Shown in pieces: positions 1-10,809 of a stretch of 64,000 nt of DNA. The notes below the pieces were generated by a model that had not been told where the DNA came from, ran no database searches, and saw only the letters and a list, made by a program, of their open reading frames with translations. Origin of the DNA: Patescibacteria group bacterium (GTDB taxonomy: Bacteria; Patescibacteriota; Microgenomatia; UBA1400; PJMF01); contig JBPOHR010000011.1 of assembly GCA_052035325.1 (NCBI GenBank), positions 8,131 through 72,130 on the forward strand, written 5' to 3'. The position numbers and the translations under genes are program-made. Positions within the stretch are counted from its first letter, which is position 1; each line of letters begins with the position of its first letter.

Positions 1-62
1 AAACGAAATAAAAACCTAATCTGGATACTGCTAAAATAGATTGATACATCGACTATTTTATC

Positions 63-71
63 TGTGGATAA
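63..71. promoter_or_regulatory. DnaA-box consensus 9-mer (TGTGGATAA = reverse complement of TTATCCACA)
   Basis: Perfect match to the E. coli-type DnaA box; a 1-mismatch box GTATCCACA lies at 2018-2026. Confidence 0.35.
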
Positions 72-74
72 CAT

Positions 75-101
75 TTAGCAGTCTACTCTATCGACTGCTA
101 A
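75..101. promoter_or_regulatory. 27-bp palindromic site TTAGCAGTC-N9-GACTGCTAA (copy 1), candidate recombinase/regulator site
   Basis: Exact 9-bp inverted arms with a 9-bp spacer; a second copy of identical architecture lies at 2053-2079. Confidence 0.5.
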
Positions 102-135
102 CAGCCGATAGAAATATAGGCAGTGATTTCTCCAG

Positions 136-1134
136 ATGTACCAGAGTAGGGGATCTGTGCCCTACTCTCGATCAATGATACTATACAAAAAGGCCACTAT
201 GCCAGTCTCAACTCAAGTCTCCCCTGCCCTGCTCACCTATCTCGAACATTTAGAAGTCGAACGCAATGTCAGTCGACTCACGATTCGTAATTATCAGCAT
301 TATTTGAAGCGTCTCATTGGTTGGTTGGAGACTCAAGAAATTCGTGATCTGCAACAGCTCTCACTCGAGGTACTCCGTAGCTATCGAGTGTATCTGGCTC
401 GATATATAGATGAACAAGGTAGAACCCTATCCAAGAAGACGCAGAGCTATCATATTATTGCTCTCAGGGCATGGCTAAAATGGCTGATAAAAAACGATGC
501 GCCGGTACTCAATCCGGAAAAAATTGATATTCCCAAGGCTGAATCACGCTCTATGAAGTTCCTTCATATAGAACAAATTGAGCGACTTTTGGCGCAGCCC
601 GCTATTTCGGCCAAAACAGGCTTGAGGGATAAGGCCTTACTAGAAGTACTCTTCTCTACTGGTTTGCGGGTAAGTGAGCTAGTCAGTCTCAACAGGGACC
701 AAGTTGACACGACACGGCGAGAGTTCGGAGTGATTGGAAAAGGCAGACGGCCGCGCGTGGTGTTTTTGAGTGAGCGCGCAGCCATGTGGTTGGACCGCTG
801 GTTGGCGTCTCGGGAGGATAACTGGAGACCGGTATTTATACGGATGAGTCGCACTAAACCTGACTTGCTCGCAGATGGTGAAGAGATGCGCTTGACGACT
901 CGAAGTGTGCAGCGTAGTGTTGATCATTACTGTCGTACTGCTAAGCTGCCGATAAAGCTCAGTCCACATGGAGTACGACACAGTTTTGCGACTGATTTGC
1001 TATCAAATGGGGCAGGACTGCGTGATGTACAAGAGATGCTGGGACATAAAAGCATCGCGACTACCCAGATTTATACGCATGTTACCAGGCCTGAACTGAA
1101 GAAAATGTACGATGAGTTCCATTCAAAACTCTAA
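136..1134 (+). CDS. Tyrosine site-specific recombinase, XerC/XerD family (the true start may be the internal Met near 199)
   Basis: C-terminal catalytic motifs HGVRHSFATDLL ... LGHKSIATTQIYTHV (R-H-R-Y tyrosine recombinase box); N-terminal SAM-like core-binding domain; length typical of Xer. Confidence 0.85.
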   Translation: MYQSRGSVPYSRSMILYKKATMPVSTQVSPALLTYLEHLEVERNVSRLTIRNYQHYLKRLIGWLETQEIRDLQQLSLEVLRSYRVYLARYIDEQGRTLSKKTQSYHIIALRAWLKWLIKNDAPVLNPEKIDIPKAESRSMKFLHIEQIERLLAQPAISAKTGLRDKALLEVLFSTGLRVSELVSLNRDQVDTTRREFGVIGKGRRPRVVFLSERAAMWLDRWLASREDNWRPVFIRMSRTKPDLLADGEEMRLTTRSVQRSVDHYCRTAKLPIKLSPHGVRHSFATDLLSNGAGLRDVQEMLGHKSIATTQIYTHVTRPELKKMYDEFHSKL

Positions 1135-1389
1135 AATGAGCCTTAACAAGTCAAAAATGCCCAGGGAAAAGTCAATTAGCAGTCGAGCATCGATAATGCC
1201 AATAGCTAAAATAGATTGAAAACATTGATTAATCAACAAAATAGTTATTTATGTTGGGTCGTAAGGGGGATATTTCAAACGCTGCAGCATCAATGACTCG
1301 ACTCTTATAACTCGAATCATGTATTAATATGTATTAATGTATCAATACATATCGACTTCAGAATCCGTATATGTTACAATTTCGGCCTT

Positions 1390-1737
1390 ATGAAAAAACC
1401 ACTACTCTCTGCGCTGCTTAATGGCGTCCTTCCTGGATTAGGCTACATTTACAATGGTCAACGTGTCACTGTTGGATTATTGTTGTTTGCCTATTCGTTA
1501 ATTACCCTGCTCTTGATGAAGATCGATGTTGCAGTGTTGTTCAGCAATGTTGTCACATTGCAGTTTAGCAATGACATGCTTAACATGCTTGTTGCTGTCT
1601 TGCTCATCATTGCCATGGCAATGGATAGTTATCGAGAAGCAGTTGAAGTAAATAGTCGCAGTCGCCGTCGTCGTTCGACTAAGAATGCCGCCGCTGTCGC
1701 CTCTTCACCAGCTGTGCGAAAACAGATCAAAAAGTAA
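1390..1737 (+). CDS. Small hypothetical membrane protein (2 predicted TM helices, basic C-terminal tail)
   Basis: ORF with hydrophobic segments GVLPGLGYIY...LLLFAYSLITLLLM and LVAVLLIIAMAM; no recognisable family. Confidence 0.4.
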   Translation: MKKPLLSALLNGVLPGLGYIYNGQRVTVGLLLFAYSLITLLLMKIDVAVLFSNVVTLQFSNDMLNMLVAVLLIIAMAMDSYREAVEVNSRSRRRRSTKNAAAVASSPAVRKQIKK

Positions 1738-1842
1738 TTTACTAATAATTAAGTAATCAATACATATAGAAGTAGTCGAAAGCGGGGCTAATCTCGGGCT
1801 GGCAACAAAATGCCCTCGTGATACAATATTTCCCTGCCGACA

Positions 1843-1915
1843 GGGCCGTTAGCTCACTTGGTAGAGCGCTACTATGGCATAGTAGAGGTAATCGGTTCGA
1901 TCCCGATACGGTCCA
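1843..1915 (+). tRNA. tRNA-Ala (anticodon GGC)
   Basis: GGGCCGTTAGCTCACTTGGTAGAGCGC... cloverleaf; acceptor GGGCCGT/ACGGTCC; anticodon loop ATGGCAT gives GGC; T-arm GGTTCGATCCC. Confidence 0.8.
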
Positions 1916-2052
1916 CACTAGTTTTGTCAGGATTTAAGAGCGTGTGATAGGTAAAGTTGGTTAATAGCGTGCAGAACCGCGTTTATACACGATTTACTAC
2001 TGCACTTTTGCAGAAAAGTATCCACAACATTGAGAATTAGTTAAAAAAGTCA

Positions 2053-2079
2053 TTAGCAGTCGATATACTTGACTGCTAA
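2053..2079. promoter_or_regulatory. 27-bp palindromic site TTAGCAGTC-N9-GACTGCTAA (copy 2)
   Basis: Same arms as 75-101 with a different 9-bp spacer (GATATACTT); an isolated left half-site TTAGCAGTC also occurs at 1176-1184. Confidence 0.5.
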
Positions 2080-2226
2080 CTAGGTATATAGGGTAAAAAC
2101 ATTGATATATCAAGCTATTTTTGAAGCATCTCGCAAAATACCGTTTTTTCGGCTTTTTTCAGTAAGAACGTAGATTTACTACTCCCAATTGCATGATCAG
2201 AATGATAGAAAAAACATAGTACTACA

Positions 2227-4968
2227 CTAAACAGTAGCAGTCGTTGCATTCGCTGCAACTGGTTCTTCTTTATAGGTCAACGCAACAGCAACAACACGAT
2301 CACTGCCATTCATGCGCATCAAAATCACACCTTGTGTCGGACGAGTGAGCACGGGAATGGTTTTAGCGTCGATTGGTAATTTGATGGTAATGCCGCCATT
2401 GGTACTCATCACAACCTCTTCATGTTCGTGTGTGACCATGCGAGCGGTGGCGACGTTGCCAGTGCGGGCGGTGATGTCAGAAACTTTGACACCGAGGCCA
2501 GCACGCTTCTGTAGCGGGTACTCTGATAATGCCGAGCGTTTGCCCAGACCTTTTTCGGTGACCACAAGCAGTTGATGGAATTGACCAGCTGTTGGCTTTT
2601 CGCTATCGAGTTGAGGTGAGAAAGCCTCCACACCAATGACGTAGTCGTCTTTTTGCAGTGTAATGCCGCGGACGCCTTTGGTGTCACGGTTGGAGTCTTT
2701 GATTTCAGCCTCGGAGAAGCGAATAGACTTGCCATGATAGGTAATCAGCATCACGTGGTCAGTTCCCGTAGTCAATTGTCCCCAGACAAGTTCGTCACCA
2801 TCGTTGAGGACGATGGCCACAATGCCGTTTTGGCGGATGTTTTGGTAGAGTTTGACAGCAGTTTTCTTGACTAAACCACATCGAGTGGCGAGGGTGATGA
2901 AGTTATTAGCGTCTTTGGTTTCATCGAGGGTGAGGATGGCTTGGACGGTTTCCTCTGCTTTGAGGTTGATTAGGTTGACTACCGCGGTGCCTTTTGCCTG
3001 GCGACTCGATTCTGGAATGTCATAGGCTTTAAGTTTGAAAACTCGACCCTGATTGGTGAACAGGAGCAGCGTCTCATGTGTGTCGGCTGTGAGGAGCGAT
3101 TTGACGGCATCTTCTTCTTTCATTTTGACACCGGTGGCACCTTTACCACCTCTGGCCTGACTGCGGAAAGCGGAGGGGCTGAGGCGCTTGATGTAGCCTG
3201 TTTCGGTCAGAGTGATGACGGTAGGTTCGTTGGCGACGAGATCTTCTTCAGAAAATTCACCGACTTTGCTCTTGACCACTTTGGTGCGGCGATCGTCGCC
3301 GTAGAGGGTCTTGAGCTCATTGGTTTCGTTGACAATTACCTCGAGAATGAGATCGGGATGACTCAGTAATTTGATTAAGGTATCGATGCGCGCTTTGAGT
3401 TCTTTATACTCGTCTTCGATCTTCTGACGTTCGAGAGCGGCTAGACGTTTGAGCTGCATTTCCAGAATGGCTGTAGCCTGTACTTCGGACAGACCAAACT
3501 TGGACATTAAGGCAGCTCGGGCAGTATCAGTGTCAGCTGAGCGACGGATGGTTTCGATGACGTCATCGAGGTTTTTGAGGGCAATGAGTAGGCCTTCAAG
3601 GATGTGAGCGCGGTCACGAGCCTCGCCGAGTTCGAATTGGGTGCGGCGGACGGCGACGAGCAAGCGATGTTGGATGTACTCACGCAAAATTTGCTTAATG
3701 TTCATCAATTGAGGTGTGCCCTCACTCGAGAGCGCCACCATATTGACCGGGAAACTGACTTGGAGTTCGGTGTGTTTGAAGAGTTGATTGAGGACCACTT
3801 TGGGTCGAGCGTCGCGCTTCAGATCAATGGTGATTTGCAGACCAACACGGTCAGAGTCGTCATTGAGGTCGCGGATGCCTTCCAGCTTCTTATCGCGGAC
3901 GAGGTCGGCGATTTTCATGAGGAGCCGAGCTTTGTTTACTTGGTACGGCAATTCAGTAACAATGATCTGGAAGCCACCTTTTTTGGTTTCTTCGATGCTG
4001 GCTTTGGCACGGATGACTACTTTGCCTTTGCCGGTGGCATAGGCTTCACGGATGGCTTTGACGTCGTAAATAATACCAGCTGTCGGGAAGTCTGGGCCCT
4101 GAATGTGATCCATGATTTGATCACTGGTAATTTCACTGGTGAATGTTCCAGCTAGTAACTTGGGATCGGTGGCAAGTACTTCATCGATTTTGTCGGAGGT
4201 TTTCTCGAGTGTGGTGGAAGATTTACCGGCTTTGATAGTGGCAATGATGGCATCACAGACCTCGTTGAGGTTGTGAGGTGGGATTTTGGTGGCCATACCT
4301 ACCGCAATACCTTCCGAACCCATCAGCAACAAATTTGGCAAGCGACCTGGAAGGACGGCCGGCTCTTGCATTGAGCCGTCAAAGTTATCGACAAACGGGA
4401 CGGTGTCTTTGTCGAGGTCAATTAAGAGTTCTTGAGAAATCTTGGCCAGTCTTGCTTCGGTGTACCGCATGGCGGCTGGACTGTCGCCATCAATCGAGCC
4501 AAAGTTTCCTTGACCATCGATTAAGGGATAGCGCATGCTGAAGTCTTGGGCTAGCCGGACCAGTGCACCGTAGACTGGCGCATCACCGTGTGGATGGTAA
4601 CGACCCAGTACGTCACCGACGATACGGGCACATTTCTTGTACGCACTGGTATGGTGGAAACCCGACTTGTACATCGAGTACAGGATGCGACGATGGACGG
4701 GCTTCATGCCGTCACGCACATCGGGTAGAGCTCTGGAAACGATGACACTCATGGCGTAGTCGAGGTAGGACTTCTCCATTTCACTGACGATGGAAATGTA
4801 CTTCAACTTACCAAAGCGACTTTCTTCGATAGTGCCGATGGGCGTAACTGACTCGGAGGTGGTATTTGTTTCCACGGGAGTTGCTATCTCGGAAGTGGTA
4901 GCCTCAGTAGAGGTGTCACTCTCGGTGGTATCGGTTAGTTCGTCGTCGCGGATTTGGTCATCAGTCAT
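2227..4968 (-). CDS. gyrA: DNA gyrase subunit A
   Basis: YLDYAMSVIVSRALPDVRDGMKPVHRRILY signature, QRD/breakage-reunion region and C-terminal beta-pinwheel repeats; about 60-aa acidic/Thr-rich N-terminal extension if the first ATG is used. Confidence 0.95.
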   Translation of the reverse strand: MTDDQIRDDELTDTTESDTSTEATTSEIATPVETNTTSESVTPIGTIEESRFGKLKYISIVSEMEKSYLDYAMSVIVSRALPDVRDGMKPVHRRILYSMYKSGFHHTSAYKKCARIVGDVLGRYHPHGDAPVYGALVRLAQDFSMRYPLIDGQGNFGSIDGDSPAAMRYTEARLAKISQELLIDLDKDTVPFVDNFDGSMQEPAVLPGRLPNLLLMGSEGIAVGMATKIPPHNLNEVCDAIIATIKAGKSSTTLEKTSDKIDEVLATDPKLLAGTFTSEITSDQIMDHIQGPDFPTAGIIYDVKAIREAYATGKGKVVIRAKASIEETKKGGFQIIVTELPYQVNKARLLMKIADLVRDKKLEGIRDLNDDSDRVGLQITIDLKRDARPKVVLNQLFKHTELQVSFPVNMVALSSEGTPQLMNIKQILREYIQHRLLVAVRRTQFELGEARDRAHILEGLLIALKNLDDVIETIRRSADTDTARAALMSKFGLSEVQATAILEMQLKRLAALERQKIEDEYKELKARIDTLIKLLSHPDLILEVIVNETNELKTLYGDDRRTKVVKSKVGEFSEEDLVANEPTVITLTETGYIKRLSPSAFRSQARGGKGATGVKMKEEDAVKSLLTADTHETLLLFTNQGRVFKLKAYDIPESSRQAKGTAVVNLINLKAEETVQAILTLDETKDANNFITLATRCGLVKKTAVKLYQNIRQNGIVAIVLNDGDELVWGQLTTGTDHVMLITYHGKSIRFSEAEIKDSNRDTKGVRGITLQKDDYVIGVEAFSPQLDSEKPTAGQFHQLLVVTEKGLGKRSALSEYPLQKRAGLGVKVSDITARTGNVATARMVTHEHEEVVMSTNGGITIKLPIDAKTIPVLTRPTQGVILMRMNGSDRVVAVALTYKEEPVAANATTATV

Positions 4969-8790: not shown

Positions 8791-10809
8791 ATGGTAGATT
8801 CGACTGCCCCGTTAGCTACTAATACTGATAGTGTCGTTGTCCCTGATGTGACAATGCCTACGATTGGTGGTGTTGCTCCTGTTGATGAAGCGCCAAAACT
8901 GGTGCTCACCAATGTCGATGGTGAGGCTTCGACACAGTCCGCTCAATCCGAAATCGCCGCTGCCGCTGCTGCAATCGGTGGTGCTGTGCTCGACACACCG
9001 GTAGTTTCCCCTACTCCAGTCCCTACCCCTGTGCAACCTCTCCCCTCCCCGCCAGCAGCGTTGCCTACACAATTTGGGACAGTATCAACGATTGTAGAGG
9101 TTCTTCAGCAACAGGGCGCGCTTACCCAAGGTCAAGTGGATCAGCTAAATGTTGAGCACATCCAGACAAATCGGACATTGGAAGAATTGCTCGAAGAAAA
9201 GAAGTGGCTCGACGAAGAGACCTTTTGCAAAGCCAAAGCTCAGGTGTACGGTGTTCCCTTTGTGCGACTAAGTGAGATTGGTGTCTCACCGGAAGCTTTG
9301 ACGGCCCTCTCAGAAACGGTGGCGCGGCGTTATGCAATGTTGCCGTTTAATCTAGATAAAAATGAGCGAACGTTGTATGTTGCCATGAAAAATCCACTGG
9401 ATTTGTCGGCAATTGATTTTGCTGAACAAAAGACAGGGTATCGGCTGGTCGTTCACTATGCTATGCCAAGTGAACTTGAGCGATTGGTTGCAGAGCGATA
9501 TGCACAGAGTTTATCAAGTGAAGTAACAGAAGCACTACAAGAAACGGCACAGGTCGCTGAAGCCAAAGCACAACAGCAAAACTTAGCAAATTTATCAGTT
9601 GAAGTAGTTAGAGAAGCGCCAATTAGTAAAATTGTTGAAACTATCCTTACTTTTGCCATCAAGTCCCGGGCGTCAGATGTGCATATTGAGCCGCTTGCCG
9701 ATAAGACACGAGTCAGATATCGCATTGACGGTATTTTGACAGAAAAACTCATTTTGCCTCGGTCGGTACATGAAGCAACAGTGTCGCGGGTAAAGATATT
9801 GTCAGATTTGAAGATTGATGAGAAGCGTATCCCCCAAGATGGGCGGTTCAATTTTGTAGCAGGTGCTGATGAAGTTGACTTGCGGGTCTCTACTCTACCA
9901 ACCATTAACGGTGAAAAAGTGGTGATGCGGCTCTTACGAAAAAATGCCCAGGTCCCCTCGATCGAAGATTTGGGATTAACGGGTATTGCCCTTCGCAATA
10001 TTCAAGAAGCTATCAAAGTGCCTCACGGCATTGTGTTGGTGACTGGACCCACTGGTTCAGGAAAAACCACTACGCTCTACTCCGTCCTTCACGCCATCAA
10101 CACGCCGAAAGTCAATGTGATGACGCTCGAAGATCCCGTGGAGTACCAGATGCCAGGTGTCAATCAGGTGCAAATTAATCCTCAGGCAGGACTTACCTTT
10201 GCTTCCGGTTTGAGGTCATTCTTGCGTCAAGATCCCAACGTCATTATGGTAGGTGAAATTCGTGACAGTGAGACGGCAGAGTTGGCAATCCAGGCTTCAC
10301 TCACTGGTCACTTGGTTTTTTCGACACTACATACTTCATCGGCAGCAGGAGCATTGCCTCGGTTGCTCGATATGGGTGCCGAACCATTTTTGTTGGCTTC
10401 CTCGATGACGTTGACAATGGGACAGCGGGTGGTGCGATTGATCAACCCTGATTACAAGGAAGAGTATCAACCAGATCCTGCTGTTCTACAGGATGTGCGG
10501 ACAGTGCTTGGTCCAATGTATGAACAGTGGTGCAGTGCCAATCAAAAAGATCCAGCTAAGTTGACCTTGTATCGTACGAGAAAAGATCGTCCCCAGACGG
10601 AGCCGGAGTACAAAGGTCGGATGGCAATCTTTGAGGTGATGAAGATAACCGATGAGATCGGTCACATGATTATGCAACGCAAAACAGCAAATGAAATTGA
10701 GGCTGTCGCCATGAAAAATGGTATGCTGTTAATGAAACAGGATGGATATATCAAAGCATTAGAGGGGAAAACCACTATCGAAGAAGTATTACGGGTGGCC
10801 CAGGTATAA
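8791..10809 (+). CDS. pilB: Type IV pilus assembly ATPase PilB (GspE family) with Pro/Ala-rich N-terminal extension
   Basis: GSPII_E N-domain, Walker A VTGPTGSGKTTTLYS, Asp/His boxes and tetracysteine-like region; 672 aa. Confidence 0.9.
   Translation: MVDSTAPLATNTDSVVVPDVTMPTIGGVAPVDEAPKLVLTNVDGEASTQSAQSEIAAAAAAIGGAVLDTPVVSPTPVPTPVQPLPSPPAALPTQFGTVSTIVEVLQQQGALTQGQVDQLNVEHIQTNRTLEELLEEKKWLDEETFCKAKAQVYGVPFVRLSEIGVSPEALTALSETVARRYAMLPFNLDKNERTLYVAMKNPLDLSAIDFAEQKTGYRLVVHYAMPSELERLVAERYAQSLSSEVTEALQETAQVAEAKAQQQNLANLSVEVVREAPISKIVETILTFAIKSRASDVHIEPLADKTRVRYRIDGILTEKLILPRSVHEATVSRVKILSDLKIDEKRIPQDGRFNFVAGADEVDLRVSTLPTINGEKVVMRLLRKNAQVPSIEDLGLTGIALRNIQEAIKVPHGIVLVTGPTGSGKTTTLYSVLHAINTPKVNVMTLEDPVEYQMPGVNQVQINPQAGLTFASGLRSFLRQDPNVIMVGEIRDSETAELAIQASLTGHLVFSTLHTSSAAGALPRLLDMGAEPFLLASSMTLTMGQRVVRLINPDYKEEYQPDPAVLQDVRTVLGPMYEQWCSANQKDPAKLTLYRTRKDRPQTEPEYKGRMAIFEVMKITDEIGHMIMQRKTANEIEAVAMKNGMLLMKQDGYIKALEGKTTIEEVLRVAQV

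Follow-up and report, generated by a model that had tools for sequence, protein, structure and literature searches.

The described systems closest to the locus reported here are the recombination modules of single Xer recombinases and CIRCE (controlling inverted repeat of chaperone expression), the operator of the heat-shock repressor HrcA. Single-recombinase systems such as XerS/difSL of streptococci and XerH/difH of Helicobacter keep their recombination site beside the recombinase gene. A dif site is about 28-31 bp long, with arms of about 11 bp around a centre of 6-11 bp, its inner bases are the most conserved, and it is present as a single copy at the terminus, where the GC skew switches sign. 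CIRCE is found at class I heat-shock genes (groESL and hrcA-grpE-dnaK), either in their promoters or in their 5' leaders. Transcription factors are very scarce in the genomes of Saccharibacteria and other members of the candidate phyla radiation (CPR), whose gene regulation is almost entirely uncharted. Here we analysed a stretch of 64,000 nucleotides from a Patescibacteria group bacterium (contig JBPOHR010000011.1, positions 8,131 to 72,130; hereafter the window), in which palindromes of CIRCE type lie on both sides of xer, a gene for a XerC/XerD-type tyrosine recombinase.

Palindromes around xer and their match to CIRCE

The palindrome TTAGCAGTC-N9-GACTGCTAA occurs exactly at positions 75-101 and 2053-2079 and nowhere else in the 64 kb, and two matches were obtained in 0 of 100 dinucleotide-preserving shuffles. 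An earlier note on this DNA had pointed out these two copies, an extra half-site at 1176-1184, and the tyrosine recombinase gene (199-1134) and tRNA-Ala gene (1843-1916) between the copies, and it had remarked that the 9-9-9 layout is unlike the 11-6-11 layout of dif; all of this agrees with our analysis. It had missed the likeness to CIRCE, the partner palindromes described in the next section, and the fact that the half-site is part of a decayed full copy (1176-1202). The exact half-site TTAGCAGTC, including the one at 1176-1184, occurs five times in the window, always within 75-2079, and a looser core (TTAGCA-N15-TGCTAA) gave no further sites in the window. The arms of the two exact copies are the same and their 9-nt spacers differ, with 6 of 9 positions in agreement for an inverted-pair reading and about 2 of 9 for a direct-pair reading. 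As single strands, the two copies fold at -7.2 and -8.2 kcal/mol (z about -5).

Compared with the CIRCE consensus, TTAGCACTC-N9-GAGTGCTAA, the palindrome has the same 9-9-9 layout and two mismatches, placed symmetrically with one in each arm. The exact pattern was searched in a genome collection with a single genome for each species, and the open reading frames (ORFs) starting within 250 bp of it were clustered. At least 120 loci from many phyla were found, and among the matches listed the ORF clusters encoded GroES (47 loci), HrcA (24), an RpoH-like sigma factor (10, Xanthomonadales), ClpB (6), HtpG (6) and GroEL (2). The six largest clusters, including one of overlapping ORFs at the sigma-factor loci, accounted for 94 of 118 loci among the matches listed, and Pfam searches confirmed the cluster representatives for GroES, HrcA, the sigma factor, ClpB and HtpG. 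The fallback suggestion of the earlier note, that the palindromes might be operators for a regulator, is supported by this match, and HrcA can be named as the candidate regulator. In genomes of Stenotrophomonas, Pseudoxanthomonas and the Lysobacter group (10 among the matches listed; L012, L020, L030, L055, L057, L068 and others), the longest ORF of the RpoH-like sigma factor gene begins no more than 5 bp from the exact palindrome.

Records with the label Candidatus Saccharibacteria or another CPR name also have the exact motif at chaperone genes; it lies directly 5' of hrcA-grpE-dnaK (L090), 27 bp before dnaK (L111) and before groES-groEL (L005, L035, L051 and L075). The arms of the window copies equal these CPR operators at hrcA, dnaK and groES over all 18 bases, and L005, L090 and L111 have no genes in common with the window or with the xer loci of relatives. 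Further CPR hrcA-grpE-dnaK loci (L207, L209 and L210) carry operators such as TTAGCAGAA-N9-TTCTGCTAA and TTAGCACCT-N9-GACTGCTAA, whose core is TTAGCA(C/G)-N13-(C/G)TGCTAA with free inner arm positions. In the xer-side copies of relatives, inner arm positions 8-9 vary as well (TC/GA, AG/CT, AA and others), without strict compensation, and this is the pattern of degeneracy in genuine CPR CIRCEs. At the hrcA copy of L207, the palindrome is followed after 6 nt by TTATAAAT, a layout as at xer.

A short HrcA is encoded at the CPR loci L090 (3819-4535), L111 (3538-4260), L207, L209 and L210. These proteins have about 240 amino acids compared with the 338 positions of TIGR00331, and they match it in two separate stretches, suggesting that part of the usual protein is missing. 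In Southlakia epibionticum, a cultivated Saccharibacterium, the operon hrcA-grpE-dnaK encodes an essential HrcA of 242 amino acids (K03705; PF01628 and PF03444; PMC10633639, supplementary files 1 and 2).

A composite element with strict phasing

Each palindrome in the window has a partner palindrome, denoted B (TTGATNNATCAA, TTGAT-NN-ATCAA), at 41-52, 1225-1236 and 2102-2113, and each B starts exactly 34 bp from the start of its palindrome. Exact B cores occur in the window only at 1225-1236 and 2102-2113 (0.08 expected), and the site at 41-52 is a copy with one mismatch. From the outside inward, the composite element consists of an A-tract, B, an unconserved gap of 22 nt and the CIRCE-type palindrome. 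The window contains element E1 (33-101), which reads B and then palindrome towards xer, and the mirrored elements E2 (1176-1236) and E3 (2053-2122), the last lying between the 3' ends of the tRNA-Ala gene and gyrA (Table 1). About 41.5 bp, or some four helical turns, separate the centres of B and the palindrome, so that the two are predicted to lie on the same DNA face. Between E1 and E3, identity is 17/20 in the A-tract and B and 18/18 in the arms, and it falls to 7/22 in the gap and 6/20 in the 20 nt beyond the palindrome. Because the gap and flanks are at random-level identity, the conservation of only these two motifs argues for selection on two putative protein-binding sites and not for a recent duplication.

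The composite architecture is conserved in relatives, where it is associated almost exclusively with xer. We compared 78 related metagenome loci (659 kb), for which xer was the search query and is hence present in every locus. The core TTAGCAG-N13-CTGCTAA (at most one mismatch) had 59 matches in these loci, of which 56 are no farther than 1.5 kb from xer, in a zone that makes up 39.7% of the bases (P about 2e-19). These sites precede xer, follow shortly after it or lie ahead of the 3' end of gyrA, at Xer identities down to 55%; the position of the E1 palindrome upstream of xer is occupied in relatives, and L121 has an intact palindrome at the position corresponding to E2. The B consensus over the relatives is AAATTagaTTGATnnATCAAtc, i.e., AAATTagaTTGAT-NN-ATCAAtc, and B starts 34 bp from the palindrome start in 27 of 29 elements. 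All five upstream copies with B read from B to palindrome on the + strand, and 22 of the 24 downstream copies with B are mirrored, with the B sites outermost. A further 22 palindromes have no recognisable B, about half of them upstream of xer. At the exact-motif loci listed (at least 120), neither a nearby Xer homolog nor a nearby B motif was present.

Two other identities for B were considered and rejected. As a -35 box, it lacks a -10 at the proper distance between B and the palindrome, and as a 28-bp dif-like palindrome it shows a symmetry of just 40-60% outside its 12-bp core.

Several additional arrangements were observed. In the clade with 55-57% Xer identity (L167-L190), the xer-gyrA intergenic region holds a single palindrome with a different partner, CCCTAAATTAGGG, starting about 36 bp upstream, and a repeated CCTATAGT motif is found both behind the xer stop codon and about 26 nt past the palindrome. 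L196 has an extra B and palindrome (TTAGCAGTC-tatttatgt-GTCTGCTAA) at 9780-9870 between xer and gyrA, and the ORF of a J-domain (DnaJ-type) protein of 452 amino acids starts 16 bp after it. L141 has another copy between the start of gyrA and the preceding pyrophosphatase gene. The window also contains a 32-nt direct repeat (1324-1355 and 1739-1770, 75% identity) with GTA(T)ATCAATACATAT and a B-like half, ATCAAT, whose copies sit just 5' of the promoter-like sites of a 115-amino-acid ORF and of the tRNA-Ala gene.

Table 1 Coordinates of the features at the xer locus, numbered from the first letter of the window.
Feature	Positions	Strand	Remarks
E1, outer part: A-tract (33-40) and B core TTGATACATCGA (41-52)	33-52	+	One mismatch to TTGATNNATCAA
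E1, CIRCE-type palindrome TTAGCAGTC-tactctatc-GACTGCTAA	75-101		Exact match; 98 bp 5' of the xer start codon
Candidate -10 hexamers of xer: GATAGA (107-112, 5 nt past the palindrome) and TATAGG (115-120)	107-120	+	Read from the sequence
Hairpin AGAGTAGGG-N8-CCCTACTCT in the xer leader, 9 bp	143-168	+	-8.8 kcal/mol, z = -3.95
xer, XerC/XerD-type tyrosine recombinase, 311 amino acids	199-1134	+	Pfam Phage_integrase and SAM_1; NCBIfam
E2: decayed palindrome TTAGCAGTC-gagcatcga-TAATGCCAA (1176-1202) and exact B core TTGATTAATCAA (1225-1236)	1176-1236	-	Mirrors E1
ORF of 115 amino acids, predicted membrane protein	1390-1737	+	No family match
tRNA-Ala (GGC)	1843-1916	+	ARAGORN, Rfam
E3: palindrome TTAGCAGTC-gatatactt-GACTGCTAA (2053-2079), exact B core TTGATATATCAA (2102-2113) and T-tract	2053-2122	-	Mirrors E1, direct to E2
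gyrA, convergent neighbour, right border of the conserved locus	2227-4968	-	Pfam

Promoter context of xer

Two candidate -10 hexamers follow the E1 palindrome (Table 1), and most relatives have TATAAT, TATAGT or GATAAT 5-6 nt after the upstream palindrome. A protein on the upstream palindrome would cover about -45 to -19. The copies downstream of xer are often next to its stop codon, several of them starting 7-60 nt from it, and they have a conserved -10 on neither side; they do not look like promoters. Furthermore, many relatives have CU-rich boxes downstream of the elements, CCCCT(A/G)C(T/A)C, that resemble the CCCTACTCT arm of the leader hairpin; these could pair with a ribosome-binding site or belong to a small RNA.

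Conservation of the locus

The earlier note had proposed a minimal integrative element, or an invertible or excisable segment, and had suggested looking for inversion of the 2-kb segment in related strains. We made this comparison in the related loci on assembled consensus sequences, not on reads, and saw no flipped xer orientation. DUF5656 lies on the + strand to the left of xer in 45/45 loci, and to the right gyrA lies on the - strand in 40/40 relatives showing it and gyrB in 16/16. The proposal is not supported by this comparison, and further points against it are the spacers, which are non-identical in either orientation where identical crossover regions would be expected, the housekeeping type of the Xer protein, the random-level identity outside the two motifs and the lack of a GC-skew switch. 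No cargo or mobility genes accompany the locus, its Xer is a conserved XerC/D-type protein, and a scan of viral contigs for the composite pattern gave five chance hits, none of which had the right arm. The locus is fixed and non-mobile. In L136, L142, L150 and L154, the tRNA-Ala(GGC) gene between xer and gyrA is on the opposite strand with the orientation of xer and gyrA kept, which indicates a small local inversion next to the element.

GC skew is positive across the 64-kb window, and in L122 it is +0.093 on each side of xer. A skew that is negative to the left and positive to the right of xer was found in 0 of 33 relatives, and the left and right values fit an unswitched replication skew plus an effect of gene orientation. 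The unchanged sign across the locus indicates that it is not the terminus, and copy number and site layout likewise speak against a terminus/dif identity, which was rejected.

Genes of the locus

The NCBIfam scores of the Xer protein were 246.6 bits for XerC and 243.1 bits for XerD, both under the equivalog cut-offs, and among solved structures E. coli XerD (1a0p, E = 3.5e-39) is the nearest. Exact look-ups of the protein, with either of its two possible starts, gave no recorded match. A search returned 7988 homologs at E <= 1e-30, of which the best 120 have 72-100% identity, with many homologs at 70-87%. The full set of catalytic residues can be read from the sequence, and no Xer paralog was found in the window. 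S. epibionticum has only one such xer gene (PMC10633639). By these comparisons, Xer is a conserved housekeeping recombinase.

The 115-amino-acid ORF was found only in the window and in L121. A promoter-like TCGACT-17-TACAAT (region 1352-1392) ends at 1380, 9 nt 5' of the ATG at 1390, and an mRNA from this site would be nearly leaderless. A promoter-like site for the tRNA-Ala gene is located at 1799-1827. The minus strand to the right of xer carries gyrA and gyrB with a gene for an inorganic pyrophosphatase between them, and beyond these lie genes for type IV pili. Both the genes present and the names given to their homologs suggest a CPR bacterium resembling Saccharibacteria. The tRNA was the only Rfam match in window positions 1-2400 and in L121 and L122. 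To the left, the window covers just the last 200 bp of the DUF5656-xer interval; the part corresponding to the left of window position 1 can be seen in L121 (8071-10000) and L122 (8478-10000). In relatives this interval is 0.6-1.9 kb long without called genes, AT-rich, and contains several DnaA-box-like words and no Rfam match.

Predicted control of xer by HrcA

We favour, with moderate confidence, the reading that the palindromes are HrcA-type operators controlling xer, at which binding of HrcA is predicted. We favour it because the motif is a CIRCE variant used at chaperone genes, including hrcA, dnaK and groES of CPR, and because the degeneracy of the xer-side copies matches that of CPR CIRCEs, with 56/59 core matches near xer. 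The extra element of L196 beside the J-domain protein gene lends this reading weak support. We infer HrcA as the binder at the window sites, together with the following logic of repression and looping. An HrcA dimer, expected to bind CIRCE-type palindromes, would sit at E1 on the xer promoter, whose putative -10 region starts 5 nt past the palindrome. The bound repressor would cover the -35/spacer region and keep xer off, and xer would be switched on when protein-folding stress inactivates HrcA. E3 and the decayed E2 would most likely be auxiliary operators, e.g., partners of a repression loop around xer, or alternatively operators left from a local duplication around the tRNA-Ala gene. B would presumably be bound by a second protein on the same helix face as the palindrome.

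It should be noted that a number of observations weigh against control by HrcA. A scan for consensus promoters called no xer promoter in the window, and no standard -35 hexamer is recognisable before xer. CIRCE is expected in the promoter or leader of class I heat-shock genes, and the window sites lie elsewhere: none of the genes beside them is a classical HrcA target, and E3 is flanked by the 3' ends of two genes and has a gene start on neither side. Similarly, the clade with 55-57% Xer identity has its single copy between convergent genes. Neither hrcA nor any chaperone gene is present in the 64-kb window, no hrcA was found in the 78 related xer loci, and searches for HrcA homologs found CPR proteins and placed none of them on the same contig as a xer locus. 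In addition, B is missing at every chaperone-gene CIRCE examined, which makes the xer-side sites a distinct class. The near-exclusive linkage to xer (56/59 core matches, P about 2e-19) would also be expected if the sites served the recombinase itself.

On this last explanation, the palindromes, with or without B, would be binding or crossover sites of Xer, as a dif-like site, as the ends of an invertible or excisable segment, or in Xer autoregulation. The site adjoins the recombinase gene as in single-Xer dif systems, a mirror-image pair brackets the gene, and Xer has all catalytic residues, equal XerC and XerD scores and no paralog in the window. The single gene of this kind in S. epibionticum fits a single-recombinase system, and local inversions have happened, as the strand change of tRNA-Ala in four relatives indicates. 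We nevertheless consider it unlikely that Xer acts at these sites, since their layout is 9-9-9 with a conserved 7-13-7 core and not 11-6/8-11, the 13-nt centre is unconserved, and the outermost arm bases are the most conserved, the reverse of dif. There are up to three copies per locus, the window having three within 2.1 kb, and no skew switch accompanies them, the GC skew having the same sign on both sides. Non-identical spacers should block strand exchange by a tyrosine recombinase, and those of E1 and E3 match at only 6/9 positions. Relative to DUF5656 (45/45) and gyrA (40/40), xer keeps one orientation throughout, and the same 27-mer, among the matches listed, is an operator of chaperone genes in genomes without a nearby Xer. 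A bolder proposal is that the mirror-image pairs of B and CIRCE-like palindrome assemble into a nucleoprotein complex through which the only Xer is coupled to HrcA as a sensor of proteotoxic stress. One form of it could be stress-gated expression through a repression loop enclosing the whole xer gene; in the radical form, Xer could use a CIRCE-derived site, and the locus could be a domesticated cassette whose ends were co-opted from, or are ancestral to, the repressor operator. Such a complex seems to us improbable.

In another explanation, the sites are operators of a regulator that is neither HrcA nor Xer, resemble the CIRCE half-site by chance and, with the B-binding protein, control xer and its neighbours. 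Because B, which accompanies only the xer-side sites, sets these apart as a class, we regard this explanation as a minority possibility. The neighbouring genes are not chaperone genes, and the clade with 55-57% Xer identity and the different partner CCCTAAATTAGGG points to a modular two-protein site. However, the arms are identical over 18 bases to the CPR operators at hrcA, dnaK and groES, the degeneracy across relatives is that of real CPR CIRCEs, and HrcA, if present in the cell, would be expected to bind the sites regardless of other binders. It is very improbable that the copies act as nucleic-acid hairpins, such as terminators or elements of mRNA stability, or as parts of a replication origin. 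Their folding energies and the start of several downstream copies 7-60 nt from the xer stop codon would suit hairpins, but neither copy is followed by a T-run, a terminator scan made no call at either site, and the inner stem decays without compensation inside a fixed outer sequence, a signature of protein recognition. Moreover, where -10 boxes are seen, the upstream copies precede them and would thus not be transcribed. The perfect DnaA box at 63-71 and the neighbouring gyrB and gyrA genes would suit an origin, but DnaA-box matches are at chance level (17 observed vs 16.1 expected) and the GC skew is positive on both sides, and oriC was rejected on these grounds.

CIRCE itself was already known; what appears new is its pairing with B, the mirror arrangement around a recombinase gene and the non-chaperone target, and searches of the literature on HrcA or CIRCE with Saccharibacteria, Patescibacteria or TM7 turned up no earlier description of the arrangement. 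If the recombinase that resolves chromosome dimers is under HrcA control along with the chaperones, the reach of the heat-shock repressor in reduced genomes would be broader, and protein-folding stress would be linked to chromosome maintenance. The composite element, with its strict 34-bp phasing and mirror layout kept down to 55% Xer identity, provides a concrete candidate cis-regulatory module in organisms that have only recently become genetically tractable. It also illustrates that a pair of palindromes around a recombinase gene need not mean a recombination site.

Comparison with known systems

The sites share with CIRCE the 9-bp inverted arms and 9-bp spacer and 8 of 9 arm positions, and the upstream copy overlaps the putative promoter in the manner of an operator. 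They differ from it at arm position 7, which is G in the window copies and C in canonical CIRCE, and in their neighbours, which are xer, a small ORF, a tRNA gene and the 3' end of gyrA instead of chaperone genes. In addition, the xer-side sites are paired with B at a fixed offset of 34 bp and are present as mirror-image copies around a gene, an arrangement that none of the chaperone-gene CIRCEs examined displayed.

As in single-recombinase Xer modules, a conserved palindromic site adjoins the Xer gene across the lineage, apparently with one Xer. However, the sites of XerS/difSL and XerH/difH have 11-bp arms and a centre of 6-11 bp in place of the 9-9-9 layout, and the locus described here has several copies, no skew switch and the sequence of a known repressor operator. 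Invertible promoter segments, such as the fim switch with FimB/FimE and the invertons of gut bacteria, also have inverted repeats flanking a short segment and a tyrosine recombinase at the locus. In contrast to these, the recombinase gene here lies inside the repeats, so that inversion between equivalent ends would change nothing for xer; a flipped orientation is seen in no relative, and the spacers are non-identical.

The number and placing of the copies resemble operators that act through looping, as at gal (OE/OI), lac (O1/O2) and deo, where two or three operator copies lie hundreds to about 2000 bp apart. In both cases one copy lies on the promoter and the others downstream, with a second protein-binding site that could bend the DNA. 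The likeness is one of analogy, in which looping and the oligomerisation of HrcA across distant sites would be hypothetical features of the xer locus.

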